Origin: an uncultured Candidatus Saccharibacteria bacterium | GTDB taxonomy: Bacteria > Patescibacteriota > Minisyncoccia > UBA6257 > 2-01-FULL-56-20 | Length of the DNA: 64,000 nucleotides | Reading direction: 5' to 3' | NCBI GenBank assembly: GCA_964387675.1 | Contig: CAYLWL010000001.1 | Location: forward strand, 74,819-138,818 | In this document: one piece after another, positions 19,720 to 57,918 of the stretch | How positions within the stretch are numbered: position 1 is the stretch's first letter | Layout: the number at the start of each line of letters is the position of its first letter | The notes under the pieces: model-generated | The model's database searches: none | Told to the model about the DNA's origin: nothing | Seen by the model: only the letters and a program-made list of their open reading frames with translations | Program-made: the position numbers and the translations under genes

Positions 19720-19854
19720 ATGTCGGTTACCTATCAACCGAAGAAAAAGAAGAGAAAAAGGGCGCACGGCTTCCTCGCGAGGCAAAGAAGGTCGTCGGGA
19801 CGCAATGTGCTCAAAAGAAGGCGCGCCAAAGGACGACGCCGGCTTACTGTCTAA
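19720..19854 (+). CDS. rpmH: 50S ribosomal protein L34
   Basis: 44-aa ORF '[44 protein letters not shown]'. It is absent from the ORF track because it is under 60 aa. Classic position between dnaA and rnpA. Confidence 0.8.
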
Positions 19855-19925
19855 TTTGTGGCTTTTAGGTTATAGGTTTTAGGATATGAAAACTGACACC
19901 TCATAGCTGAAACCGAGCACCTCGT

Positions 19926-20252
19926 TTGATGTTTCCCAGGAAATACAGACTTCCTATGCGCGAGAAGGTCGCCCTCCGAGAAACTTTCAGGACCCCGTAC
20001 TTTTTACTCAAAACGTCCTCCAGCGAAAGCGGACACAATAGATTCGGCATTATCGTTTCAAACGCGGCGGTAAAGAAATCCGTCCGCCGTCACCTTTGGA
20101 AAAGAAGGTTCGCCCATCATATCCGCCTATGGCCGAACATCAGGAAAGACATTTTGGTAATCGTTTCTCCGAACATAGAAAATGTATCCACGAAGGACTT
20201 AAAGAAAGAATTGGACAAGATGCTACAAAAGTTATTAATTACTAATTTCTAA
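19926..20252 (+). CDS. rnpA: ribonuclease P protein component
   Basis: Basic 108-aa protein directly after rpmH with an RnpA-like 'RLRK...F' pattern. Confidence 0.7.
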   Translation: MMFPRKYRLPMREKVALRETFRTPYFLLKTSSSESGHNRFGIIVSNAAVKKSVRRHLWKRRFAHHIRLWPNIRKDILVIVSPNIENVSTKDLKKELDKMLQKLLITNF

Positions 20253-21441: not shown

Positions 21442-21518
21442 TCACGCGAATGGCGGCAAATAACGCTAATATGATTCGCGTTATTACCTAGCGATTAGCG
21501 TTATTCGTGATTACTCCC
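21429..21518. repeat. Family-1 palindromic MITE-like element, copy 3
   Basis: TIRs 'GAGTAATCGC...GTGATTACTCCC'. Supplies the TAA stop codons of both convergent genes (jag and 21501..22739). Confidence 0.7.
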
Positions 21519-22739
21519 AAGCGACACAGCGTAGACCTTGCTGTCCAACCTATTGACAAAGAATAAGTTTTGGCCAAACACCTTCAGGTTTGAGGCGTCG
21601 AAAAGTTGGCTCTCGTCGTTGAAGATAGGCATTATATTTCCTTGAGAAAGATCAATTTTGTAGAGATCGTCGGCGGTGAAAAGCGCTTTCTTGGAATAGT
21701 CATCGGGCAAGCGGGCTTTCGAGAACGCGTTCGCATCGCGCGGTACGGCGCAGTAGAGAACATCCGAAGAACCGGAAGCATTCGGTGAACTTGAGCTCGC
21801 GGCATCCGAGGTTTGCGGCATGGTTTGTTCCCTTCCGAACGCACATTTACTTGGCAGGGTGGCAAGACGGAGCCGTTTCACGACATTGCCGAGGGCATCG
21901 ATCAAACTCAATATGCCGCCGTGCCCGCTTCGTGCCGCGGAAAAAACCAAGCCGACGTTGGTAGATGTCTCGTTCCAAAAGGATTGGAGTCCCAGACCCT
22001 CAGATACCAAAGTTAATTTGCCCGACGCAGTGTCATACATCCACATGGCGCCCGTCACGGCGGCGCTGCTTTTCTCGACAAGGAGAATGTGGCTTTGTCT
22101 TACCCAGTTCAAACTGACGTCTTGAACGCGAAGTTTCGCGAGCTCTTGCGGTTTTGTCGTGGTCTTTGAGACGTTAAGCACCAACAATGACTTGTAATCG
22201 GCGCCCTCTTTGAAATACGCTATCTGATGGCTCGTAGGAGACCAAACAGCGGATTCTGCGCCGAGCGGGAGCGGTTGCCAGGACTTGGAGGCCACGTCGA
22301 AGACGCTTGCTTGCGGCGCCGACGGGTCGCCGAAAGAGGCCAATACTTTTTTTCCGTCATAAGAAAACTCCGCGGAAATAAGCCCGGCGATAACCGACGA
22401 ACTCAAAACGACCGGTTCGCCTTTCGTGACTTTTACGACTTGGCCATCGGGCTGTACGATAATGACGTTGTTTTCTCGATCGACGAAGAAATCGGCCGCG
22501 GGGTTTTGGGCTACAAGACCGAATGTGCCGGAAGCGGATGGCAGACCGGCTTGTTGCGGAGTTTGGGAGCCGGTCGGGGAGGCGGGATTTTGTTGGATAT
22601 TCTGATTTTGGGCGCCGGGCAGGGTTCCGCTCGTTGTTCCCGACGGCGCCGCGCCGGGCCGGTAGCGCAAATAATATCCTACGAGAACCACAAGGACAAT
22701 CGCGGCGATGATGATGAATAAATAAAGGAAACGACTCAT
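21501..22739 (-). CDS. membrane-anchored hypothetical protein (N-terminal TM, Pro/Gln-rich linker, possible beta-propeller)
   Basis: 412 aa; the domain assignment is inferred and weak. First gene of the T4SS-like block. Confidence 0.4.
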   Translation of the reverse strand: MSRFLYLFIIIAAIVLVVLVGYYLRYRPGAAPSGTTSGTLPGAQNQNIQQNPASPTGSQTPQQAGLPSASGTFGLVAQNPAADFFVDRENNVIIVQPDGQVVKVTKGEPVVLSSSVIAGLISAEFSYDGKKVLASFGDPSAPQASVFDVASKSWQPLPLGAESAVWSPTSHQIAYFKEGADYKSLLVLNVSKTTTKPQELAKLRVQDVSLNWVRQSHILLVEKSSAAVTGAMWMYDTASGKLTLVSEGLGLQSFWNETSTNVGLVFSAARSGHGGILSLIDALGNVVKRLRLATLPSKCAFGREQTMPQTSDAASSSSPNASGSSDVLYCAVPRDANAFSKARLPDDYSKKALFTADDLYKIDLSQGNIMPIFNDESQLFDASNLKVFGQNLFFVNRLDSKVYAVSLGSNHE

Positions 22740-22743
22740 GATT

Positions 22744-23124
22744 TTATCTCGCTGCCGGCGCGCCGGAAACGGGCGCGAGCGCCGGGAGCGACAGTTTAGT
22801 GATATCGGGGTTTATAATATTCAGTATAAAATACGCCCCGAAAAGAAGCAGTAAGCCGAAAATTGCCCCCTTGATCCATTCTTTGCCCTCGGTTTGCCCG
22901 GAAGGGTTTCCGGCGGCAGTCATATATTTTACGCCGCCGAAGACCATCGCTCCGAGCGCCAAGACCCCTGAAATCATCAGGGCGAAGTTGTAGAGTTGCG
23001 CTATGAACTCCGTGGGTTTCGGCTCTGCCGACAAGCCGGGGATGCCGACGCTTATGGTAACCGCTTGGGCCGTACCGGTTAAAGCGAGAAGTAAGAAGTA
23101 GGGAATAAGAAGTAGGAGCTTCAT
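22744..23124 (-). CDS. VirB2/TrbC-like pilin
   Basis: Signal peptide plus two hydrophobic helices separated by a short loop ('...ALMISGVLALGAMVFGGVKYMTAAGNP...AIFGLLLLFGAYFILNI'). Confidence 0.55.
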   Translation of the reverse strand: MKLLLLIPYFLLLALTGTAQAVTISVGIPGLSAEPKPTEFIAQLYNFALMISGVLALGAMVFGGVKYMTAAGNPSGQTEGKEWIKGAIFGLLLLFGAYFILNIINPDITKLSLPALAPVSGAPAAR

Positions 23125-23134
23125 GGCGTAGTGG

Positions 23135-23860
23135 TTATTTTACAAAAATAAGGTTTACTCCGGCGTTCGCAACTTCGGTAATACTCCCCGGAATCCCGGC
23201 CGTGAAGTTTACGTTGACCGGAGAGCCGGAGGGAGCGTCCGAATTAAGAGTCACCGTCAAGGACTCCGGACTCTCGAGATTTTGCGAAGATTGCCCGTTT
23301 ACAGACCAAGAAAAATTTAGTTGAGACGACTTTCCCACGTTGAAGAAGAACGGCCATCCTTTGAATCCGATTGAAGTCGAAGAAAATCTGCCGCGAGGGA
23401 ACGGCGACTCGATGACCGCTTCGGGAACCACGACCGGAATCTCGATTGTTTTTAAGACGGGATTTGCTTGATCCGATCCGTACGATGGCAGTTCCACCCG
23501 GAGATCAATGGTGTTTTGCGCGACGCTTGGAGCGTTGAAACTGATTTTTCGCAGACCTACACCCCCCGCGGTAAATTCGCTGTTTACGTACCAATACACT
23601 TGTTGGCCGGAGAGGTCGACGCGAGTTCCGTTGTCAATAAGCTCAACCGAAGCCGTGATGGGAGAATTGGCCGTGGGGAGCGCTTTTCCCGTAAACCAAG
23701 AAGGAACGTACGTATTTGTTTTCCAGGTAATCATAAGCCGTGGCCCTTCGACGCGGCTCAGGACAAGCCCGGATTGTTGAGCTCGCGCCGGCGCGAGAAA
23801 AATAAACAGGGCGGCCGTCACGGTAAGCGTTGTGAGTATAACTTTTTTGCGGTGCTTCAT
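23135..23860 (-). CDS. secreted hypothetical protein (T4SS-like locus)
   Basis: Signal peptide, Ser/Asn-rich, no recognisable domain. Confidence 0.4.
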   Translation of the reverse strand: MKHRKKVILTTLTVTAALFIFLAPARAQQSGLVLSRVEGPRLMITWKTNTYVPSWFTGKALPTANSPITASVELIDNGTRVDLSGQQVYWYVNSEFTAGGVGLRKISFNAPSVAQNTIDLRVELPSYGSDQANPVLKTIEIPVVVPEAVIESPFPRGRFSSTSIGFKGWPFFFNVGKSSQLNFSWSVNGQSSQNLESPESLTVTLNSDAPSGSPVNVNFTAGIPGSITEVANAGVNLIFVK

Positions 23861-23891
23861 ACTTTCGGCAGACTTCCTACTCCTCTTATTA

Positions 23892-24644
23892 TTATATCAC
23901 TTCGGGAGATTTTTCTTCGCCTTCTTCCTCTTCTTCGCTTTCCGGCTTTTCTTCCTCCCGGGGCGTTTCTTCGAAAAGTTTTTGAAGCTTTTCAAGAGGC
24001 GTGAGCTCTTCGCCGAGGGCCTCTTTGGATACCTCAGGTTTCTTGGCTTCTTTTTCGGCTTCGGGGACTTCGGATGGCTTTCGTTCCGGTGCATATTCGG
24101 TCGGTTCCGTGATTTCTCGCGGGGCAGTTTCTACAGCGGTTTTCCCGGCAGTAGCCCCGGCTTCGGCGACTTCCGTTTCGGCTCTGGCCGCTCCGGCCTT
24201 GACCCCCGTTGCCGTTTTTTCTCCCGCGGTAATTTCTCCAGTCGCCGATTCCACGGACGCCGCTTCTTCGCCAAGGGCTTTTTCGGCTCCTCCAACCTTG
24301 CCGGTTGCGAGCGCCGCAACGGCGGCGGCCTTGGGATGATTGACAAGCCATATTCCCAAAAGAACACCAATCGTTCTTCCGGGGATTCCTACAAACGAAG
24401 CAATCCCTGATATTGTTTGCACAAGAGCCGGCCCGCCAAAGACCCCTAGTTTTATGACGTACCAGAACATAAGGAGTGCCCAGACAAATCCGTCAACAAG
24501 CCACGCGAAGCCGTACAGTATTTCACCGATAACGGGGATGGCGAGACCAATGTCGGCAATGATCGTAAGCGCGTCGTTCGCGAGCGCGATCATAATCATC
24601 AGGACTATTTCTACCGTATTAAATTTCTTTCCTCCCTCCTCCAT
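23892..24644 (-). CDS. polytopic membrane protein with acidic Glu-rich C-terminal tail
   Basis: Three or four TM helices followed by a Glu/Lys/Pro low-complexity tail. Confidence 0.4.
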   Translation of the reverse strand: MEEGGKKFNTVEIVLMIMIALANDALTIIADIGLAIPVIGEILYGFAWLVDGFVWALLMFWYVIKLGVFGGPALVQTISGIASFVGIPGRTIGVLLGIWLVNHPKAAAVAALATGKVGGAEKALGEEAASVESATGEITAGEKTATGVKAGAARAETEVAEAGATAGKTAVETAPREITEPTEYAPERKPSEVPEAEKEAKKPEVSKEALGEELTPLEKLQKLFEETPREEEKPESEEEEEGEEKSPEVI

Positions 24645-24662
24645 TTTTTATTTCCTCAAGCC

Positions 24663-26402
24663 TTACCCGCTCTCCTCGAGTAGTTGCTGGGGATTCGTGG
24701 TAATCACTTTATCCTCGAAAAAAGAAGATACGATCTGGATCGCCACGTGTTTCTTGCCCGCGAAAAAGAGTCCGGTTCCGACCTCCGACCCCAGGAGAAA
24801 GTTTTTTTCGGCGTTCGTGAGGTCGAACGCTTTCGCCACGACATCAATCGTCGCCGGCGCCTGTTTCAATAAGAGCTGGAGCGAGGAATTGGTGATAATG
24901 GGCCGGCCGTAGGGAGAGCGCAAGAAGTCCTCAACGTCCTGGGTGATGGTCGAAACGCCGAGATAATACTTTCTCGCTCTTTTCACGAGGCCGAACAGGA
25001 ACGTGGCGCTGTCTTCGTTTTTCATCATCCACCACGCCTCGTCGATGATCAAAAGACGCCGTTTGAGTTCGGCTCGAATCAGGTTCCAGATAAAGTTCAA
25101 AATCACAAACATCGCGATCGGCCGCAGTTCTTCTTCAAGGTCGCGGATCGAGAAAATGATCAATCGGTTCGTGATGTCGATATTCGTTCTTTGGTTCAAA
25201 AATCCCGAAAAGCTCCCTTTCGTGAATTTATAGAGCCGTTCGGCCATCGTCCTCCCTCCTTCGATACTTCGCAGCACGGTTTCCAGGTCTTCGAGGAGCG
25301 GCGGCTCGGCTTGCGAAAAATCCTGATCGGCTACGATTTCTCTCGAAGCGTACGTTTCCGTGATCGCCCTGTCGAGGAGCGCGTCTTCTTCGGCCGTGAC
25401 TTTGCCTAACATTAACTTCACCAAACTCGCGAGGTTTACGATGTGCGAGCGGAGGACGTCCGATGGCGATTCGTCTTTCGGCACGATGGGAATGTCGAAC
25501 GGATTGATGTGCTCGTGGGACGAGAGAGAAATGTTGAAAACGCTTCCGCCCAGGGCCTCCGCCAGCTTGCGGTATTCGTTTTCCGGATCGATGACGATTA
25601 CGTTTTCCACGCCGATCATGAGCGATCGCATGATTTCGAGTTTGGTGGCATAGGACTTTCCCGATCCCGATTTCGCGAAGACGACTTGATTCGCGTTTTC
25701 CAGAGAAAACCGGTTGAATATGACCAAACTGTTGTTGTGAAGGTTCACGCCATAGAGAATTCCTTCATTCGACGAAAGGTCTTCGGATACGAAAGGAAAA
25801 AGGGAAGATATAGGTTGTGAATTCATAGGATTCCACACTTGGAGCTGGTCGTCGCCCAAAGGAAGGATCGAGCAAAACCCCTCCAATTGTTCGAAAAGCG
25901 CCGGCCTCGCGTAAATCAACTTTGATTCCGTGATTGATGTTAGTTTTCCTTCGAGGCGGGATAACTCCTCTTCGCTATCCGCGTAAATCGTGATATACAC
26001 GCCGAGGTTGAACAGTTTTTCTTCCGATTGCTGGAGCGTGTCGCGCAGTGTCTCCACGTCGCGGAGCGCCGTCTCGAGCATGGGATCTCTTACGAGTCCT
26101 TTATCCTGATTTTCCATAATTTGGGATTCCAGCTGGGCGGACTTTTTGCGCAGGTTCTTGAGAGCGGTGCCGGTGTCCACGGGATTCACGAAAATCGATA
26201 CGTCGAAAAGGTTGGGCAGATTGATCAGCTGTTCGGCCCATCCCGTCGAGAGGTAGCGGGGGTACGAGAACAAAAAGAAACTCTTGGCGAGTTTATCGCC
26301 GATTTTGAGATGAGAGGGGAGTACTTGGATTCCTGACGGAGCGATAATTTTTACTATCCCTTCGAAGCCGTTTTCTTTTTTTTCTTTTTCCTGCTCGGCC
26401 AT
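24663..26402 (-). CDS. VirB4/TrbE/CagE-family conjugative ATPase, C-terminal ATPase part
   Basis: Walker A 'KSGSGKS' and Walker B 'LLIIDEAWWMM'. Confidence 0.65.
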   Translation of the reverse strand: MAEQEKEKKENGFEGIVKIIAPSGIQVLPSHLKIGDKLAKSFFLFSYPRYLSTGWAEQLINLPNLFDVSIFVNPVDTGTALKNLRKKSAQLESQIMENQDKGLVRDPMLETALRDVETLRDTLQQSEEKLFNLGVYITIYADSEEELSRLEGKLTSITESKLIYARPALFEQLEGFCSILPLGDDQLQVWNPMNSQPISSLFPFVSEDLSSNEGILYGVNLHNNSLVIFNRFSLENANQVVFAKSGSGKSYATKLEIMRSLMIGVENVIVIDPENEYRKLAEALGGSVFNISLSSHEHINPFDIPIVPKDESPSDVLRSHIVNLASLVKLMLGKVTAEEDALLDRAITETYASREIVADQDFSQAEPPLLEDLETVLRSIEGGRTMAERLYKFTKGSFSGFLNQRTNIDITNRLIIFSIRDLEEELRPIAMFVILNFIWNLIRAELKRRLLIIDEAWWMMKNEDSATFLFGLVKRARKYYLGVSTITQDVEDFLRSPYGRPIITNSSLQLLLKQAPATIDVVAKAFDLTNAEKNFLLGSEVGTGLFFAGKKHVAIQIVSSFFEDKVITTNPQQLLEESG

Positions 26403-26413
26403 TTTAATTTTTT

Positions 26414-26443
26414 AGCTTTTAGCTTTTAGGTGTTAGCTTTTAG
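26414..26443. repeat. AGCTTTTAG iteron-like 30-bp repeat R1
   Basis: 'AGCTTTTAGCTTTTAGGTGTTAGCTTTTAG'. Near-identical copy at 27121-27150 and an inverted copy at 27584-27613. Confidence 0.7.
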
Positions 26444-26451
26444 CACTAAAA

Positions 26452-27114
26452 CTAGCGTTCCGGCAAAACAACTTTTTCTTTTTCGACCGTTCCCGGGTTG
26501 TAAAAGTTATAAAAAAGCTCGATCAGCTGTTCGTCGTTCAAGACGGTCGCTTCGAGGCCGATGACCAGAAGATTCTCCATCACCTGCCGCACCCGCTGTT
26601 TCAACTGCTCCAGGTTTTCTTCGAACGTGGCTTGCGTTTCTTTCTTCGCGCGCTCTTCCGCCGCCTTATTCTTTTTCTTCAAAAAAGGCAGGAGGCCTTC
26701 TATGCCGGTCGCGCTCGCGAGGACATTCGGAAAGAAAGGCACCACCAAAAAAAAGGATTTTTCCATAATGGGATTCTTCTCGATGAAGCCGGAAACGAAT
26801 TCGCGGTACTCTTCGGCCTGGTTCTGCAAAATAGGAGAGGTTTCTCTTTGCTGGAATTCTCGGAGCCCTTCCAGGTATTTGTCGATGTTGATCTTCCTCG
26901 AGTGGATGAGTATTTGCAGGGGGAAATCCAAGCTATTCAGAAGGTTCTGATACGCTTGCAGAACAATGTTTTGCTCCGTTTCCGATTTGAGGGCGAAATT
27001 AATGCCGCCCACCATGACTACTTGGCGCAAACTGCCATTTTTGAGGATAACCGTGCTGTCTTTGATATCCTTGATGGCGACGAGATCTTGGCTGTTGGCA
27101 AATTCTTTGGGCAT
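26452..27114 (-). CDS. VirB4-family N-terminal domain protein (split VirB4)
   Basis: N-terminus '...LVAIKDIKDSTVILKNGSLRQVVMVGGINFALKSETEQ...' resembles the VirB4/PrgJ N-terminal domain. The 49-bp gap to the C-terminal part contains repeat R1. Confidence 0.5.
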   Translation of the reverse strand: MPKEFANSQDLVAIKDIKDSTVILKNGSLRQVVMVGGINFALKSETEQNIVLQAYQNLLNSLDFPLQILIHSRKINIDKYLEGLREFQQRETSPILQNQAEEYREFVSGFIEKNPIMEKSFFLVVPFFPNVLASATGIEGLLPFLKKKNKAAEERAKKETQATFEENLEQLKQRVRQVMENLLVIGLEATVLNDEQLIELFYNFYNPGTVEKEKVVLPER

Positions 27115-27120
27115 GTAAAT

Positions 27121-27150
27121 AGCTTTTAGCTTTTAGGTGTGAGCTTTTAG
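27121..27150. repeat. AGCTTTTAG iteron-like repeat R2
   Basis: 'AGCTTTTAGCTTTTAGGTGTGAGCTTTTAG'. Confidence 0.7.
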
Positions 27151-27159
27151 TCCTTATAA

Positions 27160-27531
27160 TTATAACCCACCTTTAAGCTTCGTGCTTAGTTTTGTTATCA
27201 TGACGCTAAGCATTTTTTGAACTTCCTCTAAAAGAGAAACAACAGAGACGAAATCTAGGGTTGGATATAGTTTTTGAGAAATAATTACTTGGGTTTCCAA
27301 TTCCGCCGAAGACGCGTCTGCGATTCTTAGGAATTGTAAGTATTCCGGAAGGTCTTTTCTTCTCGATCCTTCGGCTATGTTTGACGGAATTGAAATTGCC
27401 GATCGTCTCATTTGAGAAATAAGGCCATATAATTCTTCTCGGGGGAATTGTTTGGTTAATTCGTATATTTTTTCAACCAAGCCAATCGATTTTTTCCAGA
27501 CTTCTAGGTCTTTGTACGATTTTATATACAT
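27160..27531 (-). CDS. four-helix-bundle protein (23S rRNA intervening-sequence / Avd-like family)
   Basis: '...KQFPREELYGLISQMRRSAISIPSNIAEGSRR...' matches the TIGR02436/PF05635 pattern. The gene is bracketed by R2 and the inverted R3. Confidence 0.65.
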   Translation of the reverse strand: MYIKSYKDLEVWKKSIGLVEKIYELTKQFPREELYGLISQMRRSAISIPSNIAEGSRRKDLPEYLQFLRIADASSAELETQVIISQKLYPTLDFVSVVSLLEEVQKMLSVMITKLSTKLKGGL

Positions 27532-27583
27532 TAAAAGCAGCTTTCAGCTGTTAGATGTTAGCTTTTAGTTTTTGTAATCGTAC

Positions 27584-27613
27584 CTAAAAGCTAAAAGCTA
27601 AAACCTAAAAGCT
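27584..27613. repeat. AGCTTTTAG iteron-like repeat R3 (inverted)
   Basis: Reverse complement is 'AGCTTTTAGGTTTTAGCTTTTAGCTTTTAG'. A partial direct copy lies at 27548-27573. Confidence 0.7.
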
Positions 27614-27614
27614 T

Positions 27615-28109
27615 TTATCGGTAGTCCACTCTCCGAGCCGCCTGCCGCTCCCCCGTCATTTTTTGGAATATCTGAAATCGCTGCCGTTGGGGTTTTTCTA
27701 TAAACTGCTCGCCGGATATCTTTGTTCCGGTTTGGAGTTTGGCCCACGCGTTGCGAAGCGCAAGTCCGGAGACCACGGATTCGAGAGACACCCCGCCGTT
27801 TTTCGCCTCTTCCGGTTTTTGCGCAGGCGCCGTTTCGGGCCGCCACACGTACGTCTGCGGTTGCCAATAGAACCTGATTGCCGAGAGGGCGGCGTGGCTC
27901 AGCGGCCTTCCTCCCACCTTCACGAGCGCGAGGGCGACCGCCGCGCCAAGAATAAAAACGGAGAGTAGCGCCCAGAGCCAGGGTTGAACCGTAAAATACA
28001 AAAGAAAACTGAACGCGCCGCCCGTTGCGACGTAAATAAACTGACGCATCGTGAACGGCCCGACGATTTTGTCTTCGGCCTCGATAAATTGTGGAACTTG
28101 GAATTGCAT
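27615..28109 (-). CDS. PrgI/VirB3-like small membrane protein
   Basis: 'MQFQVPQFIEAEDKIVGPFTMRQFIYV' then two TM helices, matching PrgI-family N-terminus. Sits upstream of VirB4 as in Gram-positive-type T4SS. The overlapping ORF 27598..28140 is rejected. Confidence 0.5.
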   Translation of the reverse strand: MQFQVPQFIEAEDKIVGPFTMRQFIYVATGGAFSFLLYFTVQPWLWALLSVFILGAAVALALVKVGGRPLSHAALSAIRFYWQPQTYVWRPETAPAQKPEEAKNGGVSLESVVSGLALRNAWAKLQTGTKISGEQFIEKPQRQRFQIFQKMTGERQAARRVDYR

Positions 28110-28164
28110 TTATGAGATACCAATATACGAATGCATACAAGTGATACTAATAATACTAATCGTA

Positions 28165-28563
28165 TTAATGCCCTTTTCCGACTCTTTTTACCGAGTGGAG
28201 GCGAAACCAAGCAGATATTGATTCTAGATCAAGTTTTTTGTGCACCACTTCAAGCGCGAAACTTTCTACTTTTCCCTCCTCCGCCTCAAACGTGTAACCA
28301 TTGTCATCAAGAAACACTATTGCCGCTGTTATGCCAGTCCTTTTATTTCCGTCAAAAAATGGATGACCCAGAATGATATTGCGCGCATAAACAGCCGCTT
28401 TTTCGAAAATAGTAGGGTATAATTCCGTGCCAAATGCTTTCTGCCCGGGAAGAAACTCCAGACTTAGAATTGTGTTTGTATCTCGTACGCCGTGCAGGCC
28501 GCCGGTTTCGTCAAGAACAAGTGAGTGAATCTGAAGAATATCTTTCGCAGATAAATATTCCAC
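28165..28563 (-). CDS. doc: Doc (death-on-curing) Fic-family toxin
   Basis: Fic motif 'HPFFDGNKRTG'. Confidence 0.8.
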   Translation of the reverse strand: MEYLSAKDILQIHSLVLDETGGLHGVRDTNTILSLEFLPGQKAFGTELYPTIFEKAAVYARNIILGHPFFDGNKRTGITAAIVFLDDNGYTFEAEEGKVESFALEVVHKKLDLESISAWFRLHSVKRVGKGH

Positions 28564-28565
28564 GG

Positions 28566-28805
28566 CTATTTTTTCGCGAGCGCTTGGAGATCTTTCCGAT
28601 ATCGATCAACGAAATTGAGCGTGAGGTATGCAATCCTTTCCTGGCGTTCTGCTATTTTATTGGATGGTCGAACGGAAAAAACACGCCGTTTTCGGTTAAC
28701 TTCTACTATTACCGAATCTCCGATATTAAGGCCGAGTTCTGCCAATGACTTTTTCGAGATGGTGACCGCGGCGGAAGAGCCGACCTTGAGGACTTTTTGA
28801 GTCAT
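28566..28805 (-). CDS. AbrB/MazE-fold antitoxin (Phd-like partner of Doc)
   Basis: 'LKVGSSAAVTISKKSLAELGLNIGDSV' SpoVT/AbrB swapped-hairpin motif. Ends 3 nt upstream of doc. Confidence 0.7.
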   Translation of the reverse strand: MTQKVLKVGSSAAVTISKKSLAELGLNIGDSVIVEVNRKRRVFSVRPSNKIAERQERIAYLTLNFVDRYRKDLQALAKK

Positions 28806-28853
28806 ATTCTTGATTATAATACTATTATAATACGTGGCCGTGTGTCAACCTCA

Positions 28854-30035
28854 TCAAGGTTGTACTGGCGGCGTTGGCGGTTTCGGGGGAAGTGGCGGTT
28901 TTGGTAGTATAGGTGGTTTAATCTCGCTGATTATCGGCGAGAGTGTTTTATGCTCATCAAGACCTCGAATGGCAGGTGCCGCTGGTGGTTTCGGGATGGT
29001 CGGAGACGTAAGCGGTTTCGGAACCGGAGGCAGAGAGGATGGCGTTTTGACTTCGCTTGTTGGGAGCTTGTCTTGGGCGGTTTCGAGGGGCTTGTTCGCC
29101 TGGGGTGTGGCTGGTCTGATTGCGGCGAGCTGTTTGAGAATATCGGATCCGCCAAGGGACGGCTTCGACGACTCAATAGCCGTGATTTCTTTTATTTCGC
29201 GCCCTGGCTTGCCCTCTGTAGCCTTAGCGAAGGAGGGGGCCGCGCCGGAAGGTTTATCCTGAGCCGCGCCGAAGGGCGTTTTGGACTCCGTGTAGTGCAC
29301 CACCCGCACCTGCTCCTTGTTACTTGTCACTTGTTGCCTGTTACTCGTCGAGGGTCCGAATTCAAGCACGGCCGGTTTCGTTGCTTCGGTTTTAAGTTTT
29401 ATTTCCGACAGTTTCGGCTGTGGCATTTCCAGTCGGAATTCTTTTTTGAGAGGAGCGGAAACCGGTTCTTCGTGAAGAATCATCGGCGGCGGTGTGCCGG
29501 GGCTTGGGACCGCCGGTTTGCCGGGCGGTACCGGAGAAATTGACGGAGTTAGTGGAGCGGGGGGCTTCTCGGCGCGGTTTATCACAGGCGGCATCGAAGG
29601 GCTTGGCGCAAACGGTTCGGCGGTTTTCGCCGCCGGAAGAAGCGGCGGTTTTATTTCCGTGACTGGTTTTAGCGGTTCGGTTTTACTTATCATAACGGGA
29701 GCGAAGGCGGACGGCGGCTCGTATATTTTTTCCAAGTCAGCCAAGAGCGGCTTAAAAACTCTTTCGTTTACGGCGTTGGCGATGGATGTCGCGATTTGAA
29801 TGTCCAAGCCGAGCGCGTCTTTTAATTCTTGCGCGAAGTCTCCCGCGTGGATAAAGCCCAAGAGCACATAGCCGGCAATTGCCGCGACGCGATAAATCTT
29901 TTCTTTTGGTACGTGCTCCGCTTCGCAGGTTCGCCAGAGGAAATCAGAATGTACGTCGGAATAGAGAGCCTCCTTTAATTTACTTGGTAGCGTGTCCCAC
30001 CGCGCCAACGCTTGATCTGGAGAAATCGTTATCAT
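28854..30035 (-). CDS. Pro-rich hypothetical protein (structured N-terminal domain plus long P/S/T/K-rich disordered region)
   Basis: 393 aa. Contains an in-frame GTGACA-family repeat coding 'QVTSNKEQ'. Confidence 0.4.
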   Translation of the reverse strand: MITISPDQALARWDTLPSKLKEALYSDVHSDFLWRTCEAEHVPKEKIYRVAAIAGYVLLGFIHAGDFAQELKDALGLDIQIATSIANAVNERVFKPLLADLEKIYEPPSAFAPVMISKTEPLKPVTEIKPPLLPAAKTAEPFAPSPSMPPVINRAEKPPAPLTPSISPVPPGKPAVPSPGTPPPMILHEEPVSAPLKKEFRLEMPQPKLSEIKLKTEATKPAVLEFGPSTSNRQQVTSNKEQVRVVHYTESKTPFGAAQDKPSGAAPSFAKATEGKPGREIKEITAIESSKPSLGGSDILKQLAAIRPATPQANKPLETAQDKLPTSEVKTPSSLPPVPKPLTSPTIPKPPAAPAIRGLDEHKTLSPIISEIKPPILPKPPLPPKPPTPPVQP

Positions 30036-32269
30036 GGATTTGTGGTATTGGCTGGACCTGTAGCGCTCGGGGTTGTCGCGCCTCCTCCCGTAGATGAAAA
30101 TCCGAAAGCATTATTGGCGAAAGCTCTGTCGAAAGCGTCGGCGGCAAAGGCCATCCGATTAAGCCGTTCTTGTTGCTCCGTCGATCCCGGGGCGGTTGTG
30201 TTTTCTATATTGTCTAGTTCCTTGTCGATCTCTGCTTTATAAACTACGTTGAAATTTTTCAGTGTGGGCGATTTCATTTTATTGAGCATGTTCGGCACGA
30301 GCTGCTGGGCATACACCGCAAGTTGTTTTGCGAGAACTTGCGCCATTCTTTGTGAGGCGGTCGGAGAAAAGACCTCATTCATATTCATTTTAGCGACGTC
30401 ACTCTTGTTCAGTTTTTCTACGAATTCTTTTGTGGCTTTGTTGAGGGCGTCGAACGCTCTCACGGTTGCTCCGGTCGCGTCCCTTATTTCTGCGGTCATC
30501 GGATTTCTTCCCTCCCTCTCCGCTTTCGCCATCGCTCTTTCGGAGTCCCTCATCGTTTTATCGCCTCCAAACGCTTTGTTTATATCAGAAGATAGTTTTC
30601 CTTGCCCGTATGCGGTGAAATCTCGTTGGTGAGAATCTATCCAATCCTTAGCGGTTTGATTTCCGATCGTGTCGGTTTCTTTAAGTTCTTCGTCGCGAAC
30701 CTGCGCGGCAAGGTTGGCGAATATTGCTTCTTTTTTCATCGAACCGCGAAGGTTCTTTCTCCGTTCCTCCGGATTGTCGGGCACATTCTTCGCCGCTTGC
30801 CTGACATACTCTTCGTTGGTGCCAATTCCGGCAAGCATTCTGCCCGTAGCGGCCAAGGGACGCAATCTGCTCTCTCGCAAGCGATCAATAATACCTCTCT
30901 GCCCCTCGCCAAATTTTCTTTCCCCCGCAGCCCTTAGCGCCGCTCTTCCGCCAATCTTTCCCTGTTTGAACGCAAATCCTTGTATCGCTCCGCCGGCGGA
31001 TTTTGCGAGTCCCATCGTCACGCCCGCGCCAGCGACGGAAAGGGCATTGGCCGCGACTAATCCGCCCAAAGAAAGGCCGGTGAGCAGAATTATGTCACCT
31101 AATGACTGAATAAAGCCAAGATCTTGTCCAGACTGTTGCGCGAGAGAAATAGCTGGAGCGTTAACAGCTTCTTTCACGTGAGCCGCTACGTTTCCCGAGC
31201 GGCTCTGGGATACGGCGATGGCGAGGTATAGGAAAAATACGACGGTCGGCGCGAAGAATGTCCATCGTATGAAATTACTCCACCACTTGTCCCAATGAGA
31301 TTTAAACTTCGGAAAAATCCAAAGAAGCCAAACAAGGGGCATGATGATCAAAAGTATTCCGAGATAGATGTAGCGTATAAAGAGCATAACCGCAAGCGCC
31401 ATGAACGTAAGGGCAATAATTGCGTTGAATACGATTACAAATACTAATCCTAAGAGATTTTGAAAAAACTTATCTCCTTGATTTTTATCTACATTCGTAA
31501 AGTAATTCACAAGGGCAGTAGAGGCGGCTCCAATTGCGGCTGTGCCCGCGCAAACCCCCGCTACTCCAACCGGCCCCGCCGCGAGCCCCAACCACCATGT
31601 AGCCGCACATGTTCCTACGACGCTGGCGGTTGTGAGTTTGGACCCTATGGAGCTGGCGAGCGATGAGGGGGTGGTACTGCTTGATCTGGAAAGCAGTACT
31701 TGAGGCTTAAATCCTATGACTAACTGATTCACGAACGCTCCGTTCGCATCAGAACCCGAACCGGGGAATGGTTTCATAAAGAAAGTGGTTAGGCTGTCGG
31801 AGAATCCAACTATTGAGCCAGCAATGACCAGGCTGAAGTTTACGAAAATAGCGGCCACCACTAGTTTCCAGAGAATTTGTTTTACTCCATAGGTTTGGCT
31901 TCGGAGAATTGTTGCGATGGCTATTATAATAATCGCAAGGACAAAGCCAAGGTTAGCTAAGGCGAGCGTTACGCCGAAACCGGTCGTTACCGCCGTCGAG
32001 TTAATTAGACCAGGGGTAAGAGAAAGTGCGAATTGTGTCAGCCACGCTCCGAGCGATACAAACCAACTCGTAATAGTACCAGCCGCATAAGTTACGAAAT
32101 ACAAAGCGCAATAAACCAGAGAATTGCTACCGAAAACACAGCTTAAAAGAGAACCGCCGCTGTTATTTGAATTAGTTTGAGCTTGAGTGGGTGACGGCAT
32201 CGCGGCCGAAAGAAACAGAATCACGAGAATTCCCGACACCATTAACTTTTTTGTTTTCCAGTTGGTCAT
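30032..32269 (-). CDS. VirB6/TrbL-like polytopic membrane protein
   Basis: Signal/TM then at least 6 TM helices and a long charged C-terminal region. Start chosen at 'MTNWKTKKLMVSGILVILF' (28 nt after the upstream stop); the track ORF extends to 32413. Confidence 0.4.
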   Translation of the reverse strand: MTNWKTKKLMVSGILVILFLSAAMPSPTQAQTNSNNSGGSLLSCVFGSNSLVYCALYFVTYAAGTITSWFVSLGAWLTQFALSLTPGLINSTAVTTGFGVTLALANLGFVLAIIIIAIATILRSQTYGVKQILWKLVVAAIFVNFSLVIAGSIVGFSDSLTTFFMKPFPGSGSDANGAFVNQLVIGFKPQVLLSRSSSTTPSSLASSIGSKLTTASVVGTCAATWWLGLAAGPVGVAGVCAGTAAIGAASTALVNYFTNVDKNQGDKFFQNLLGLVFVIVFNAIIALTFMALAVMLFIRYIYLGILLIIMPLVWLLWIFPKFKSHWDKWWSNFIRWTFFAPTVVFFLYLAIAVSQSRSGNVAAHVKEAVNAPAISLAQQSGQDLGFIQSLGDIILLTGLSLGGLVAANALSVAGAGVTMGLAKSAGGAIQGFAFKQGKIGGRAALRAAGERKFGEGQRGIIDRLRESRLRPLAATGRMLAGIGTNEEYVRQAAKNVPDNPEERRKNLRGSMKKEAIFANLAAQVRDEELKETDTIGNQTAKDWIDSHQRDFTAYGQGKLSSDINKAFGGDKTMRDSERAMAKAEREGRNPMTAEIRDATGATVRAFDALNKATKEFVEKLNKSDVAKMNMNEVFSPTASQRMAQVLAKQLAVYAQQLVPNMLNKMKSPTLKNFNVVYKAEIDKELDNIENTTAPGSTEQQERLNRMAFAADAFDRAFANNAFGFSSTGGGATTPSATGPANTTNP

Positions 32270-32297
32270 TTGTATTATTGTTGCGACTGCGATTCTC

Positions 32298-34259
32298 TTA
32301 AGGGTTATTAATATTGTCCCTCGACCCCCCTGGATAATCGCCGCTGAAATCACCCGGAACTTCATCGAGTAAGTCCCCGGCGCCGGGGCCGCTCTCGCCC
32401 GGTGGCACTTCACTCGGATTCTGCGGGGTTACCTCTCCCGGCGGAGGCGGCTCATTGCCGCTCACTCTGTCCCTTGTATTGAGTTCGGCAAGTCCGCGCA
32501 CTCCCGCGAGGACCAGCCGGTTGAGGGTAGAGTTCACAAACGCGGAAACGAGTCCCACGACATCTTGAGCGTTTACGATGTTGTGGAGCGGGGCGCCGAT
32601 GGCGCCCGCAACGGCATCGCCGGCCACTTGTCCCGGCGTCGTGTCCTTATCTTCTTCACACGACGGCCTGTCGGACAAGCTGATACATCGGCTGAAGTCG
32701 TAGTTTGGCGATTCTCCTGTTTCCCTGGCGACAAGATCTGCGTTTTCCGTTACGGAATCGACACAGGACTGCCGCGGGCTCGGTCCGAATTTTACGCACA
32801 CCTTAGTCGCGAGGAACCCGCCGCTTGATTCGGCGCTACTTTTTGCGGCTTCTTTCTTCGCTAACCGCTCCGCTTCAATTTGTTGTGTTGTTTCGAACAA
32901 GCTTCCGAAATAGTTTCCGCTCGGGAGTATGAGAGCCCCATATCCCACCCAGCCGCCCTGGTTGAAGTCGTTGTAGAAGTTTTTCACGTTTTGCACCACC
33001 TGTTCGAGCATACATGTTTGAAGAGGATTGGATAAGTAGACGTTGCTTAGTTGAAGCTTGATGAGGGGTCCGAGCGACTGGCAAAGACCGGGAATTTTTG
33101 CCTGGATAGCGTTCGACACGGCGTCTTTTTCCGTTTGGCGGAGAAATCCCCGCCAGTTCGTGATAAACTGGGGCTTGCCTCCGCCCTGAATCCAATTGAC
33201 TGTCTGCTGCATGATCCGGTTGACGAGCTGATTTTTAAGGGTTTGGAGAATCACGCTCTCGATATGCTTCCTCACCCACTCCCACACCATACGCGCGACG
33301 GTTATGGCCGCATCGACGCCGAAAAAGGCATGGGCGGATTTTATTTCAAAGAGACCCGCGAGCGCGAGCAACGCGTTTTCGCTCGATGAAGAGTTTCCGC
33401 TGATTGACGCGGCCTTCTTCGCCTCGTTTTCAAGATTTCTGAAAATCGACGAAATGTTCTGCTCCGCATTTTGCAGGGCGAGCATCTGCGAAAGGGGGTC
33501 GTCCGAGTTTACGGCGCCGACGGCCTGTTTTTCATACGCCACGAGCATGAGAAAGTTTTTGTGGAAATTCACGAGCGGCGCGGGAACCGGCAGTTTTTTG
33601 AGAGCGATGTCCGCTTCGTCAAAAGTGACCGAGAGCGCGTTGATCGTCCCCGGAGAGGCATCCCCCCTTTGGAGAGTGTTCTGAACTTCCGAGCTGCCGA
33701 TTCCGCCGCTCACGATTTTGCCGAATGAATCCAAGTAATTTTGAATATCGTTCGAAGAATAATTGTTTATGATTTTTATATCGGCGTCGGCAACGTGAAC
33801 ATTCCAGCCGGTCGGCGCCGCGCCGGTTCCTTTGCCCGCAATGGCTTCTGCGATCGTCGCGTCAAGATCGGGCGAAGCGACCGACAGTTGCCCCGCCTCG
33901 TTTTGCGATGGCCCCCCGGGGTTTTGTTTTACGACGCTCCGCACAATGGTCGCCGCGAGACGGTCGGTGAGGTTTGCCGATGCGGAGATGGGCGGCAGAC
34001 CGTCATCTTGCGAGTTGGCAATATTCGCGTCGCCGATCGGATTGCCTCTCGGAATCGGCTCCACAAAGACGTTGTCGGGAACTTTGACCTTGCTATGAAC
34101 GGAGTCGAGGAGCACGGCATTTTTACCTTGTTGCCGATCTCCGGCAACCCTCGTATTGCCATTACTCAAAAATCCCGAGAACAAAAACACCGAAGAGCTT
34201 GTGATGGCGGAAAAAACGAGAAATCCCGTAATAAGTTTTTTTATGGTTATCTCGGACAT
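32298..34259 (-). CDS. large membrane-anchored secreted hypothetical protein (T4SS-like locus)
   Basis: Start at 'MSEITIKKLITGFLVFSAI' (TM). 650+ aa with a Gly/Pro-rich C-terminus and no known domain. Confidence 0.4.
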   Translation of the reverse strand: MSEITIKKLITGFLVFSAITSSSVFLFSGFLSNGNTRVAGDRQQGKNAVLLDSVHSKVKVPDNVFVEPIPRGNPIGDANIANSQDDGLPPISASANLTDRLAATIVRSVVKQNPGGPSQNEAGQLSVASPDLDATIAEAIAGKGTGAAPTGWNVHVADADIKIINNYSSNDIQNYLDSFGKIVSGGIGSSEVQNTLQRGDASPGTINALSVTFDEADIALKKLPVPAPLVNFHKNFLMLVAYEKQAVGAVNSDDPLSQMLALQNAEQNISSIFRNLENEAKKAASISGNSSSSENALLALAGLFEIKSAHAFFGVDAAITVARMVWEWVRKHIESVILQTLKNQLVNRIMQQTVNWIQGGGKPQFITNWRGFLRQTEKDAVSNAIQAKIPGLCQSLGPLIKLQLSNVYLSNPLQTCMLEQVVQNVKNFYNDFNQGGWVGYGALILPSGNYFGSLFETTQQIEAERLAKKEAAKSSAESSGGFLATKVCVKFGPSPRQSCVDSVTENADLVARETGESPNYDFSRCISLSDRPSCEEDKDTTPGQVAGDAVAGAIGAPLHNIVNAQDVVGLVSAFVNSTLNRLVLAGVRGLAELNTRDRVSGNEPPPPGEVTPQNPSEVPPGESGPGAGDLLDEVPGDFSGDYPGGSRDNINNP

Positions 34260-34344
34260 CGGTTGACAGAAATCCCCTATTCTTATCATTATAGCTCATA
34301 TAAATTAAAGATATTGCGAGTTATCCCCAGGTTACTCACGGCCA

Positions 34345-35196
34345 TCATGAGGCCATGGCGCGGGCTATCCGAACTATATCTTCTACGCTCAAGTTCTGTG
34401 GTCTGCTTTTGGGGTCTACGCCCATTTTTATTAGGGTTTCGGCGATGCTTTCTTTGCTTTCTGGCTTACCGGTGGTTTTGCGGCTTCGGTCTTGACACCT
34501 GATACTTGACACCTGACACATATTATTGAGAATCGTTTTCCTCGGCTGGGCAAAAAGAATTTTCACGGTTTTATAGTAAAGTTGCTCCCTGACGCCTGAC
34601 ACATGACACTTGACGCTTAGTTTGACGATCGCCGAATCGACTTCCGGCTGTGGGTCGAAATCTTTTCTTGGGATGAGGCCGATCAATTGCGGGTCTGCCC
34701 AAAATTGGACGATCGCGGCCAAACGATTCATTCGCGGGGGCGCGGCGCAAATTCTTTCCGCGACTTCTTTCTGGATAGTGAAGACGCACAACTCTGGCTT
34801 CGTTGACAATTCGCTCAATATTCTCAAAAGTTTTCCGGTAATGTAGTAGGGAATATTGCCGACAATCTTATATTCAGATTTAAGATTTATGAATTTTGAT
34901 TTAAGAATGCTTAAGGCGTCACCGTTTAGAATTTCTATATCTTTAATTCCTAAATCATAAATCCTACTTCTTAAATCATTCGCAAGCTTTGGATCTTTTT
35001 CAATCGCAATAACTTTTATCGGCGGCGAGCCGTTTTTTTCTAAAAGCTCACAGCTAAAACCTAAAAGCTCTTCAGTCAGCTCTCCGTGCCCCGGGCCGAT
35101 CTCGACGATGGTGTCGCCGGGTTTCAATTCCACGGCACCGACGATTTTTCGAATCGCCGATCTATTTTGCAAGAAATGTTGGCCCAGCCGCTTCAT
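34345..35196 (-). CDS. rsmA: 16S rRNA (adenine1518/1519-N6)-dimethyltransferase RsmA/KsgA
   Basis: 'LGQHFLQNRSAIRKIV...IVEIGPGHGELT'. The C-terminal region carries two in-frame TGACAC-repeat insertions coding Cys/Gln/Val/Ser-rich peptides. Confidence 0.8.
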   Translation of the reverse strand: MKRLGQHFLQNRSAIRKIVGAVELKPGDTIVEIGPGHGELTEELLGFSCELLEKNGSPPIKVIAIEKDPKLANDLRSRIYDLGIKDIEILNGDALSILKSKFINLKSEYKIVGNIPYYITGKLLRILSELSTKPELCVFTIQKEVAERICAAPPRMNRLAAIVQFWADPQLIGLIPRKDFDPQPEVDSAIVKLSVKCHVSGVREQLYYKTVKILFAQPRKTILNNMCQVSSIRCQDRSRKTTGKPESKESIAETLIKMGVDPKSRPQNLSVEDIVRIARAMAS

Positions 35197-37143: not shown

Positions 37144-37162
37144 GTGACAAGCAACAAGTAAC

Positions 37163-53296: not shown

Positions 53297-53371
53297 GGGC
53301 GCATAGCTCAATGGCAGAGCACCGAGCTTATACCTCGGCGGTTCTAGGTTCGAATCCTAGTGCGCCCACCA
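53297..53371 (+). tRNA. tRNA-Ile (anticodon UAU)
   Basis: Acceptor GGGCGCA/TGCGCCC, D-arm GCTCAATGGCAGAGC, anticodon stem CCGAG/CTCGG with loop CTTATAC, T-arm CTAGGTTCGAATCCTAG, CCA encoded. Confidence 0.8.
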
Positions 53372-54893: not shown

Positions 54894-54920
54894 AGCAAAT
54901 ACTTAAAATCGCAAGGGATT

Positions 54921-55033
54921 TCGAACCTGCGCTTGGCGAGCCGCGCCGTGCGCGGCGAGCCAGTGTTTCCATACCTTTCCGCGCTTCGCGCGGCAAAATC
55001 CATTGGCAAAATTTCTGAAAGTTTAATACTGGT
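54921..55033. repeat. IR-A' (inverted copy of IR-A)
   Basis: Reverse complement of 53368-53480, including 'CACCAGTATTAAAC' derived from the tRNA 3' end. Confidence 0.8.
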
Positions 55034-55182
55034 GCGTTTGTTTGACGAAATCCGAACCTTTTTTGAACAGAACTGACCGCCTCCGCTTCGCTCCAGCGGA
55101 ACGCTCGGGCGCGGCGGAATTCCCCCCTTGAACCCCCCTTCCGCCGCGCCCTCGCAAGAGGCCAGAATTTTTTCGCCGCCAA
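55034..55182. repeat. IR-B (GC-rich ~150 bp), left inverted repeat flanking the cargo genes
   Basis: Near-perfect reverse complement of 56766-56911. Confidence 0.8.
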
Positions 55183-55260
55183 TCCAATTAAGAAATGATT
55201 AAGCATAGTTATACTATAGTATAACCGTTGTCCAACAAAACAACAAGTGATAAACTGTGT

Positions 55261-55476: not shown

Positions 55477-55477
55477 T

Positions 55478-56754: not shown

Positions 56755-56765
56755 TATATTTCTGT

Positions 56766-57270: not shown

Positions 57271-57274
57271 TTGG

Positions 57275-57855: not shown

Positions 57856-57918
57856 GCCGCCTTTTTGAAAAAATTGCCACCGGATTTCGTGCCGGTCAAA
57901 GACTGGCGCGCCGCCTAA

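Follow-up and report, generated by a model that had tools for sequence, protein, structure and literature searches.

A two-gene VirB4 in a probably non-conjugative type IV secretion system next to the replication origin of Paceibacteria

A block of 13 co-oriented minus-strand genes (positions 21501–34289), established by listing and translating the open reading frames (ORFs), occupies part of a 64,000-nucleotide stretch of contig CAYLWL010000001.1; the whole stretch is hereafter called the window. The block very probably encodes a non-conjugative, vertically inherited and origin-proximal type IV secretion system (T4SS) of Paceibacteria (Candidatus Liptonbacteria), belonging to a Patescibacteria-specific clade derived from MPF-FATA systems. 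It is an unremarkable example of a kind of system first described in 2023–2025 and, in that sense, already known. An initial annotation of the window had listed the same 13 ORFs, all of which were recovered, and had treated them together as a T4SS-like locus; this description holds for the core genes, whereas three of the 13, namely a MazE–Doc pair and a gene for a 23S rRNA intervening-sequence protein (IVP), are insertions. The same annotation had proposed a minimal non-conjugative T4SS for interaction with a host or partner, a proposal that is supported by the evidence below and matches published work on Patescibacteria (PMC10633639, PMC12102498).

Core components and the two-gene VirB4

The VirB4 ATPase is encoded by two genes, one for a TrsD-like N-terminal part (VirB4-N) and one for the middle and C-terminal P-loop domains (VirB4-C), in which the Walker A (GSGKS) and Walker B (LLIIDEAW) motifs are both intact. 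VirB4-C scored 396 bits against the NCBIfam equivalog conju_CD1110 (cut-off 325; profile positions 189–734 of 752), matched Pfam P-loop_TraG at 2e-26 and had the VirB4 C-terminal domain of PDB 4AG5 as its nearest solved structure (E=8e-39); the PDB search also gave a weak alignment to TrwK (E=8e-4). VirB4-N covers positions 13–105 of the CD1110 profile and matched the N-terminal positions of three other NCBIfam models, VirB4_plasma (1e-11), VirB4_CagE (4e-10) and TrsD (7e-7), all below the full-length cut-offs. Both products are colinear with a fused VirB4 of 792 amino acids (aa; P0023), VirB4-N aligning to residues 1–218 with 56% identity and VirB4-C to residues 220–790 with 81% identity. The VirB4 ATPase in two ORFs that had been reported initially is confirmed as a conserved two-gene form. 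A HerA/FtsK-type ATPase, considered from the outset as an alternative identity for these ORFs, was rejected, since the DUF87/HerA central domain scored only 32.8 bits and the neighbouring genes encode PrgI, a pilin and a VirB6-like protein.

The arrangement was compared in 83 loci around VirB4 homologues from about 80 species of Liptonbacteria, Harrisonbacteria, Jorgensenbacteria, Kaiserbacteria, Taylorbacteria, Zambryskibacteria, Azambacteria, Nealsonbacteria and other lineages, onto which the window proteins were mapped by tblastn; many of these loci are cut short by contig ends. Among the 80 loci with both parts, VirB4 is split (about 215 + 578 aa) in 73 and fused (about 790 aa) in seven. 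VirB4-C has at least 8000 homologues, and among the best 120 of them 117 have the split-form length of about 578 aa; those among the matches listed were 75–100% identical and all derived from Patescibacteria or metagenomes. The fused loci (L001/L002, L011, L016, L024, L027 and L028) are interleaved with split relatives: L001, the closest locus to that of the window, has a fused VirB4, and the nearest relatives of L016 are split. Because fused forms are scattered among split relatives in this way, their distribution implies that several independent fusion or fission events took place.

In 70 split relatives, the junction between the two genes usually measures 1–5 nucleotides (nt) or is an overlap, with a median of 4 nt. 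Such short junctions fit translationally coupled genes, which argues that the split form is a functional two-polypeptide VirB4 and not a product of decay. A sequencing frameshift or recoding was ruled out as the cause of the split, given its presence in 73 of 80 loci, in varied frames and mostly with junctions of 1–5 nt. In the window, the two ORFs lie in different frames and are separated by a 49-nt spacer built from a CTAAAAG-type heptamer unit, which is possibly a solo arm or insertion scar of the repeat that brackets the IVP gene (see below). Inserts of 58–460 nt are found at the same junction in about 15 species (L005:9897-9995, L035:5168-5271, L050:9346-9417, L071:9795-9902; also L040, L042 and L061), and several of them, judged by eye, look palindromic or composed of short tandem repeats, like 'empty' stems of IVP cassettes. 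The junction looks like an insertion hotspot.

The other two core components with curated support are the pilin and PrgI, which, like VirB4-C, scored above the curated cut-offs and bear out the VirB2-like and PrgI/VirB3-like assignments made initially. The pilin matched PF18895 (T4SS_pilin; E=1.1e-12, 48 bits against a cut-off of 26.6) and, more weakly, the NCBIfam Mbov_0395 pilin-like model (1.9e-4). It consists of a signal peptide and two hydrophobic helices by hydropathy, and its gene lies 1.5 kb downstream of virB4. PrgI matched PF12666 (E=1.8e-10, 41.7 bits against a cut-off of 27) and forms a two-transmembrane (TM) hairpin with its TM segments at residues 36–63 by hydropathy; in 76 of the 83 loci its gene is immediately upstream of that for VirB4-N, whose ATPase it partners in the membrane. 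The VirB2-like pilins of many relatives carry long Cys-rich C-terminal (or N-terminal) extensions of 100–300 aa (for example L047:13187-14158, L051:13600-14763, L010:12776-13840 and L032:13163-13789), which might be displayed on the pilus surface. The pilin of the window is minimal by comparison.

The VirB6-like protein has a signal peptide or TM segment at its start, about 7–8 further TM segments and a hydrophilic C-terminal extension of about 330 aa, as judged by hydropathy; an architecture with such an extension has been termed 'extended VirB6' (PMC12857230). A GTG at 32413 is available as an earlier start codon, but the ATG at 32269 is preferable because a product begun there has a typical signal peptide and 28 nt are left between the ORF and the upstream gene. 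The protein has no Pfam match, its TM region gave no tblastn match among 72,556 plasmids, and its family profile returned coiled-coil noise or nothing against PDB sequences. However, 7 of 41 syntenic orthologues match PF04610 TrbL (best 1.9e-7) and 2 of 41 match TrbL_4. The initial assignment as a VirB6-like polytopic protein is thus supported through the orthologues rather than by a direct match above threshold.

Genomic setting and function of the system

The order uvrD–ksgA–[653 aa]–VirB6–(Pro-rich)–PrgI–VirB4N–VirB4C–(3TM)–Ig–pilin–TolB-like–jag–yidC–(rnpA)–dnaA–dnaN is common, in whole or in part, to the 83 loci and thereby to about 80 Paceibacteria species, across which the median identity of VirB4-C is 59%. 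By tblastn, VirB4-N was present in 80 loci, PrgI in 76, the pilin in 56, dnaA in 50 and the VirB6-like protein in 48. In the window, ksgA lies immediately upstream of the block, with uvrD beyond it, both on the same strand as the block; downstream, jag, yidC, rnpA and rpmH follow on the plus strand and then dnaA and dnaN on the minus strand, dnaA being 2 kb from the end of the block. These flanks place the locus on the chromosome, next to the replication origin, a setting that the initial annotation had missed. No relaxase, type IV coupling protein (T4CP) or integrase flanks the block, and the only recombinase in the window, a large serine recombinase, is 19 kb away. The block therefore appears, on comparative grounds, to be a fixed, vertically inherited chromosomal operon close to the origin rather than an island. 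VirB4, the 653-aa protein and the 241-aa secreted protein are each 100% identical to proteins of a metagenome-assembled genome of Candidatus Liptonbacteria.

Pfam scans covering nearly all ORFs of at least about 200 aa in the 64-kb window turned up housekeeping genes, a PilB-type ATPase and the serine recombinase, but no relaxase, VirD4/TcpA coupling protein, VirB9, VirB10 or VirB11 among the scanned ORFs, in agreement with the initial annotation, in which none of these had been visible. Since neither a relaxase nor a T4CP is encoded close by and the operon keeps its place among housekeeping genes, the T4SS most likely serves a host-dependent lifestyle rather than conjugation. It probably belongs to the Patescibacteria clade, to judge from the origin of the listed VirB4 homologues, all of them from Patescibacteria or metagenomes, and from the best curated model, the MPF-FATA-type CD1110.

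Systems of this clade have been described in detail. Wang et al. 2023 (Cell; PMC10633639) reported that SEML1_0008-0010 of S. epibionticum (VirB4, an upstream hypothetical protein and PrgI) and a pilin array are essential for epibiotic growth, in a T4SS of Gram-positive-like composition that has unusual pilins and no recognised coupling protein or relaxase. Quiñonero-Coronel et al. 2025 (Microb Genom; PMC12102498) surveyed 3,035 Patescibacteria genomes and found VirB4 in 2,417 of them, most of the proteins forming a single clade within MPF-FATA, and relaxases in only 103. In their survey, TrsD, PrgI/VirB3, VirB6 and VirB2-like pilins occur near virB4 (the N-part next to virB4 being named a 'TrsD homologue'), VirB8 and VirB1 are seldom found, and in Paceibacteria the neighbours of the locus include dnaA, dnaN, rnpA and ksgA. 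A 2025 review lists the Patescibacteria systems as a new T4SS subgroup (PMC12857230).

The window locus has the same core as the S. epibionticum system (SEML1_0006-0019), consisting of VirB4, a TrsD-like N-protein, PrgI/VirB3, a VirB6-like protein and VirB2-like pilin(s). Like the published systems of the clade it is chromosomal, has no nearby relaxase or T4CP and takes the place by dnaA, dnaN, rnpA and ksgA that is typical of Paceibacteria, and its gene order matches that of SEML1_0010/0009/0008 (PrgI, N-part, VirB4). However, it has a single pilin gene instead of the six-gene array of S. epibionticum, no NTF2/VirB8-like protein was detected in it, and it contains Paceibacteria-specific accessory genes (for the 653-aa, 3-TM, tandem-Ig and TolB-like proteins) as well as the MazE–Doc and IVP genes.

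Among better-known systems, those of the MPF-FATA type (pCF10 Prg/Pcf, pIP501 Tra, pGO1 Trs and the CD1110-type C. difficile CTn2) are similar to the window locus in their VirB4, in the PrgI-family VirB3, in the TrsD-like N-protein, which resembles that of pGO1, in the weak CD3337/EF1877 match of the VirB6-like protein and in the lack of a VirB7, VirB9 and VirB10 outer-membrane core. Unlike these systems, the block encodes neither a relaxase, a T4CP of the PcfC/TcpA type nor an adhesin of the PrgB type, and no VirB1 of the PrgK/TraG type or VirB8 of the PrgL/TraM type is recognisable in it; moreover, it is not on a mobile element, and it encodes a VirB2-like pilin, which Gram-positive systems lack. 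The VirB2–VirB3–VirB4–VirB6 inner-membrane and pilus-assembly module is shared with diderm VirB/Trw systems (A. tumefaciens VirB, R388 Trw; PDB 7O41), but the window locus is without VirB5 or VirB7–VirB11 homologues and differs in its two-polypeptide VirB4 and monoderm envelope. T4SSs such as B. pertussis Ptl, Brucella VirB and H. pylori ComB also work with no coupling protein or relaxase and serve protein export or DNA uptake, not conjugation. Nevertheless, all three are diderm systems with a VirB7/9/10 core, and no close sequence kinship links them to the window locus beyond the VirB4 superfamily.

Several observations weigh against a non-conjugative T4SS of this clade as the explanation of the whole block. 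No VirB8-like or VirB1-like protein was identified inside it, and the VirB6-like protein of the window is under every curated threshold, its best NCBIfam match being the CD3337/EF1877 mobilome membrane protein at E=4e-4. The AlphaFold 2 model of the 653-aa protein, built on an 18-sequence alignment, is poor (pLDDT 57, pTM 0.42). The operon is broken up by the MazE–Doc pair and the IVP cassette, with possible polar effects. Finally, T4CP homologues are common elsewhere in Patescibacteria genomes, usually far from virB4 (PMC12102498), and with scans covering 64 kb a distant T4CP or relaxase is possible.

Within a host-interaction role, one special case would be an inward T4SS that imports nucleic acids, like H. 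pylori ComB or archaeal Ced, and feeds a cell unable to make nucleotides. As in ComB, no relaxase or T4CP was found in the window scans; VirB4-C is weakly similar to CedB (5.8e-12) and CedD; and a 2026 preprint (bioRxiv 10.64898/2026.06.21.733656) associates VirB4 with 'macromolecule transfer' for a parasite of the Minisyncoccota that feeds on RNA, and interprets tubular structures at the parasite–host interface as possible T4SS pili. However, VirB4-C scores far below the cut-offs for membership of the Ced family (CedB 45 bits against 700, CedD 17.8 against 600), no CedA-like genes were identified, the ComB components VirB7, VirB9 and VirB10 are absent, and the block includes no nuclease or DNA-binding component. 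In S. epibionticum, moreover, deletion of comEC ends competence and leaves the cells viable, while the T4SS is still essential (PMC12857230), so that T4SS essentiality does not operate through ComEC-dependent uptake. Nucleic-acid import is, on balance, an unlikely specialization of the system.

Less probable still is a functional conjugation system that has its relaxase, oriT and coupling protein in another part of the genome. The placement of VirB4 in the CD1110 model family, which represents a Firmicutes integrative and conjugative element, would suit such a system, as would the distant T4CP homologues mentioned above. Nevertheless, relaxases are as rare in Patescibacteria as the 103 genomes cited above indicate, the block keeps its place between uvrD–ksgA and the dnaA region across about 80 species and shows neither an integrase nor element boundaries, and the distant T4CP of S. 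epibionticum is not essential, in contrast to its T4SS genes (PMC12102498). A decaying mobile-element remnant, to which the out-of-frame VirB4 ORFs with their repeat-filled spacer and the two insertions inside the operon might point, is largely refuted by the prevalence, short junctions, conserved length, colinearity and intact Walker motifs of the two-ORF VirB4 described above, by the full length of the remaining ORFs relative to their orthologues and by the essentiality of both equivalent VirB4 genes in S. epibionticum (PMC10633639).

Accessory proteins, inserted genes and repeats

The remaining genes of the block encode five accessory proteins and the three inserted products; their positions are given in Table 1 together with those of neighbouring features.

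Table 1. Genes and other features of the T4SS block and its surroundings (window coordinates)
Feature	Position	Strand	Remarks
653–663-aa protein gene	32298-34289, or from ATG at 34259	-	First gene of block
VirB6/TrbL-like gene	30032-32269	-	745 aa
Pro-rich protein gene	28854-30035	-	393 aa
Promoter-like TTGACA-N16/18	28848-28819		Just upstream of MazE–Doc
MazE/AbrB-type antitoxin gene	28566-28805	-	Inserted
Fic/Doc toxin gene	28165-28563	-	Inserted
PrgI/VirB3-like gene	27615-28109	-	164 aa
IVP cassette	27118-27616	-	Arms 27118-27150 and 27584-27616
23S-rRNA-IVP gene	27160-27531	-	Inserted
VirB4-N gene (TrsD-like)	26452-27114	-	220 aa
VirB4-N/VirB4-C spacer	26403-26451	-	49 nt
VirB4-C ATPase gene	24663-26402	-	579 aa
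3–4-TM membrane protein gene	23892-24644	-	250 aa
Tandem-Ig secreted protein gene	23135-23860	-	241 aa
VirB2-like pilin gene	22744-23124	-	126 aa
TolB-like propeller gene	21501-22739	-	412 aa; last gene of block
PilB/GspE-type ATPase gene	10289-11965	-	About 10 kb from block
rpmH (L34)	19720-19854	+	44 aa; below ORF-list length
Heptamer-type hairpin-like element	19856-19930		rpmH–rnpA spacer
rnpA	19926-20252	+	
ksgA	34345-35196	-	
Heptamer run inside ksgA	35040-35068		In frame
uvrD	35287-37227	-	
LysM + Peptidase_M23 hydrolase gene	37163-38302	+	Divergent from uvrD; outside block
tRNA-Ile(TAT) gene	53297-53371		
Large serine recombinase gene	53328-54893	-	

The 653–663-aa protein has one N-terminal TM anchor, is mostly helical and Cys-containing, and shares with its family the conserved core WIQGGGKPQF...CTL...GGW...TTPG...NAQD. 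The family is unannotated and comprises 6056 representatives at 50% clustering; in 24 loci, orthologues are directly upstream of the VirB6-like gene. Neither Pfam, NCBIfam nor PDB sequences gave a match to the protein (PDB profiles from alignments of 18, 18 and 62 sequences), and a Foldseek search of its AlphaFold 2 model against the PDB returned nothing at E<0.3. An NCBIfam scan of 62 family members gave scattered chance matches only. Sub-threshold matches to PF13605 (DUF4141) were found in 6 of the 62 members (best 7.1e-5); the one that was inspected covers about 30 residues just before the WIQGGG core, directly after the 'AHA' that ends a hydrophobic stretch. DUF4141 proteins are encoded beside traJ and near traG in conjugative transposons of Bacteroides (PMC10434189). 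This similarity hints, as a lead only, that the family belongs to a T4SS-related module, and a role as a T4SS stalk or a VirB5/TraI-like component is speculative. Members of the family have an internal hydrophobic stretch (at about residues 295–315 in the window protein) that ends in a near-invariant A-x-A (AHA in the window), followed in most by V-x-D-P. The A-x-A might be an internal signal-peptidase-type site, in which case the protein would be processed into two parts.

The Pro-rich protein combines a conserved N-terminal domain of about 105 aa with a long Pro-rich tail that is probably disordered. By hydropathy it has no clear TM segment or signal peptide, a point that the initial annotation had missed, and it matched nothing in Pfam or the PDB. 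With orthologues at the same position in 22 loci, it is an accessory component present in part of the lineage. The 250-aa membrane protein consists of a core of about 110 aa with 3–4 TM segments and a long acidic Ala/Glu-rich tail by hydropathy. In most loci, an ORF of about 100–330 aa with 2–4 TM segments follows VirB4-C and has the common motif IPxxG...K-G...LP..T; no consistent Pfam match was obtained for this family.

The 241-aa protein is secreted, with a signal peptide (ARA-QQ) followed by two beta-sandwich domains resembling those of immunoglobulin (Ig) or fibronectin type III; its family profile gave coiled-coil noise or nothing against PDB sequences. It was tried as the missing VirB8 and ruled out by its fold, which is Ig-like and not NTF2, and no other candidate in the block matched a VirB8-like NTF2-fold protein of the PrgL/TraM/TcpC type. 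The 412-aa protein encoded by the last gene has a TM segment at residues 4–22 (by hydropathy), a low-complexity linker and then a propeller: a family profile built from 31 orthologues matched TolB beta-propellers in the PDB at 1e-11, and the gene is found at the same position in 33 loci. Of the secreted or membrane-anchored proteins for which the initial annotation had no function, two have thereby gained a fold, TolB-like propeller and tandem-Ig, and the 653-aa protein has not.

Outside the block, the gene that diverges from uvrD encodes a hydrolase with Peptidase_M23 (Pfam, 4e-25) and LysM (2e-17) domains. L001, L003 and a few further loci have such a gene in the corresponding place. Some VirB1 homologues carry LysM/Peptidase_M23 domains and, as a separate finding, VirB1 homologues are encoded near virB4 in Paceibacteria (PMC12102498). 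The hydrolase is a possible, tentative candidate for a functional VirB1 analogue that would remodel peptidoglycan as a partner of the T4SS.

The MazE–Doc pair sits between the Pro-rich gene and prgI and is absent from all 83 related loci. Its toxin matches Pfam Fic at 1.6e-15, and its antitoxin Pfam MazE_antitoxin at 4.3e-5 (23.8 bits, just under the 24.7-bit cut-off). A promoter-like TTGACA-N16/18 motif precedes the pair; the promoter/terminator scan was not above shuffled expectation. The product of the IVP gene matches PF05635 at 4.5e-34. The arms of its cassette are inverted CTAAAAG heptamers over 33 nt, 85% complementary with 19 nt perfect, and the RNA fold (z=-4.7) is a long stem whose loop contains the IVP gene. 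With a repeat period of 7 and a TAA or TAG in every unit, both arms hold stops in all three frames. A gene within a stem-loop is the classical architecture of rRNA intervening sequences; here it is found inside a protein-coding operon. Neither the MazE–Doc pair nor the IVP gene is part of the T4SS.

Relatives lack an IVP cassette at the position seen in the window but have similar ones elsewhere in the T4SS locus. Their IVP genes (L013:8319-8729, L015:10067-10472, L026:7423-7887 and 9530-9998, L056:8845-9268) are at differing intergenic sites, one of the L026 insertions being between the two VirB4 ORFs, and each is flanked by inverted repeats of 21–42 nt made of short tandem units. The units differ among the cassettes (AGCCACT, CTAGCAGCAT, GTTAGTTG and ACCAACAA). 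The IVP gene of L063 has no such inverted arms. Taken together, the cassettes suggest a family of mobile, hairpin-bracketed IVP elements.

Two further repeats of this type lie near the block. A CTAAAAG-type heptamer run, AGCTTTTAGGTTTTAGCTGTGAGCTTTTAG on the coding strand, is in frame inside ksgA; the residues it specifies, ELLGFSCELLEKN, fall in a variable loop exceeding that of other orthologues, except L005, by about 3–10 residues; it may be a tolerated in-frame repeat insertion. The spacer between rpmH and rnpA contains an imperfect heptamer-type, hairpin-like element, GGCTTTTAGGTTATAGGTTTTAGG ... CTGACACCTCATAGCTGAAACC.

The serine recombinase (Resolvase, Recombinase and Zn-ribbon domains) overlaps the 3' end of the tRNA-Ile(TAT) gene and is followed, within 54000-60000, by a stretch of lower GC (0.43–0.48) with methyltransferase and GrpB genes; this region probably represents a small integrated element that has no connection with the T4SS. 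The PilB/GspE-type ATPase (T2SSE, E=8e-117) points to a separate type IV pilus or a system like the type II secretion system in the genome.

Proposed working and significance

By analogy with established T4SSs, the parts of the non-conjugative system proposed here would work as follows. The two VirB4 polypeptides, the TrsD-like N-domain and the ATPase, would dock on the membrane through the PrgI/VirB3 hairpin, and the extended VirB6-like protein would provide the membrane channel and the platform for pilus assembly. VirB4 would then extract the VirB2-like pilin, once its signal peptide has been processed, from the membrane into a pilus or conduit. The envelope proteins particular to the lineage (653-aa, 3-TM, tandem-Ig and TolB-like), perhaps with the LysM–M23 hydrolase, would form or adorn the section that spans the wall and meets the partner cell. 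The assembled T4SS probably attaches to a host cell and transports macromolecules into or out of that cell.

A bolder version, which we regard as rather improbable, holds that in Paceibacteria the 653-aa, 3-TM, tandem-Ig and TolB-like proteins take over the missing VirB1, VirB5 and VirB8 functions and form, with VirB2, VirB3, VirB4 and VirB6, a wall-spanning pilus that would be an essential organ of feeding and import host macromolecules such as nucleic acids. If this were true, a T4SS would have been repurposed from conjugation to nutrient acquisition.

Few machines have been shown to be indispensable to the epibiotic life of the ultra-small Patescibacteria, and the T4SS is among them. To this the window adds a clean Paceibacteria example, which leaves the current picture unchanged and makes the transported substrate and the direction of transport no more testable than before. 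The residual novelty is in the unannotated accessory proteins and the hairpin-bracketed IVP cassettes. For annotation, the gains are that fission and fusion of VirB4 appear evolutionarily labile, that a TolB-like propeller, a tandem-Ig protein and a conserved 3-TM protein can be added as lineage-specific parts, and that a 6000-member unannotated family is encoded beside VirB6. These gains could guide structural and genetic work on the system.

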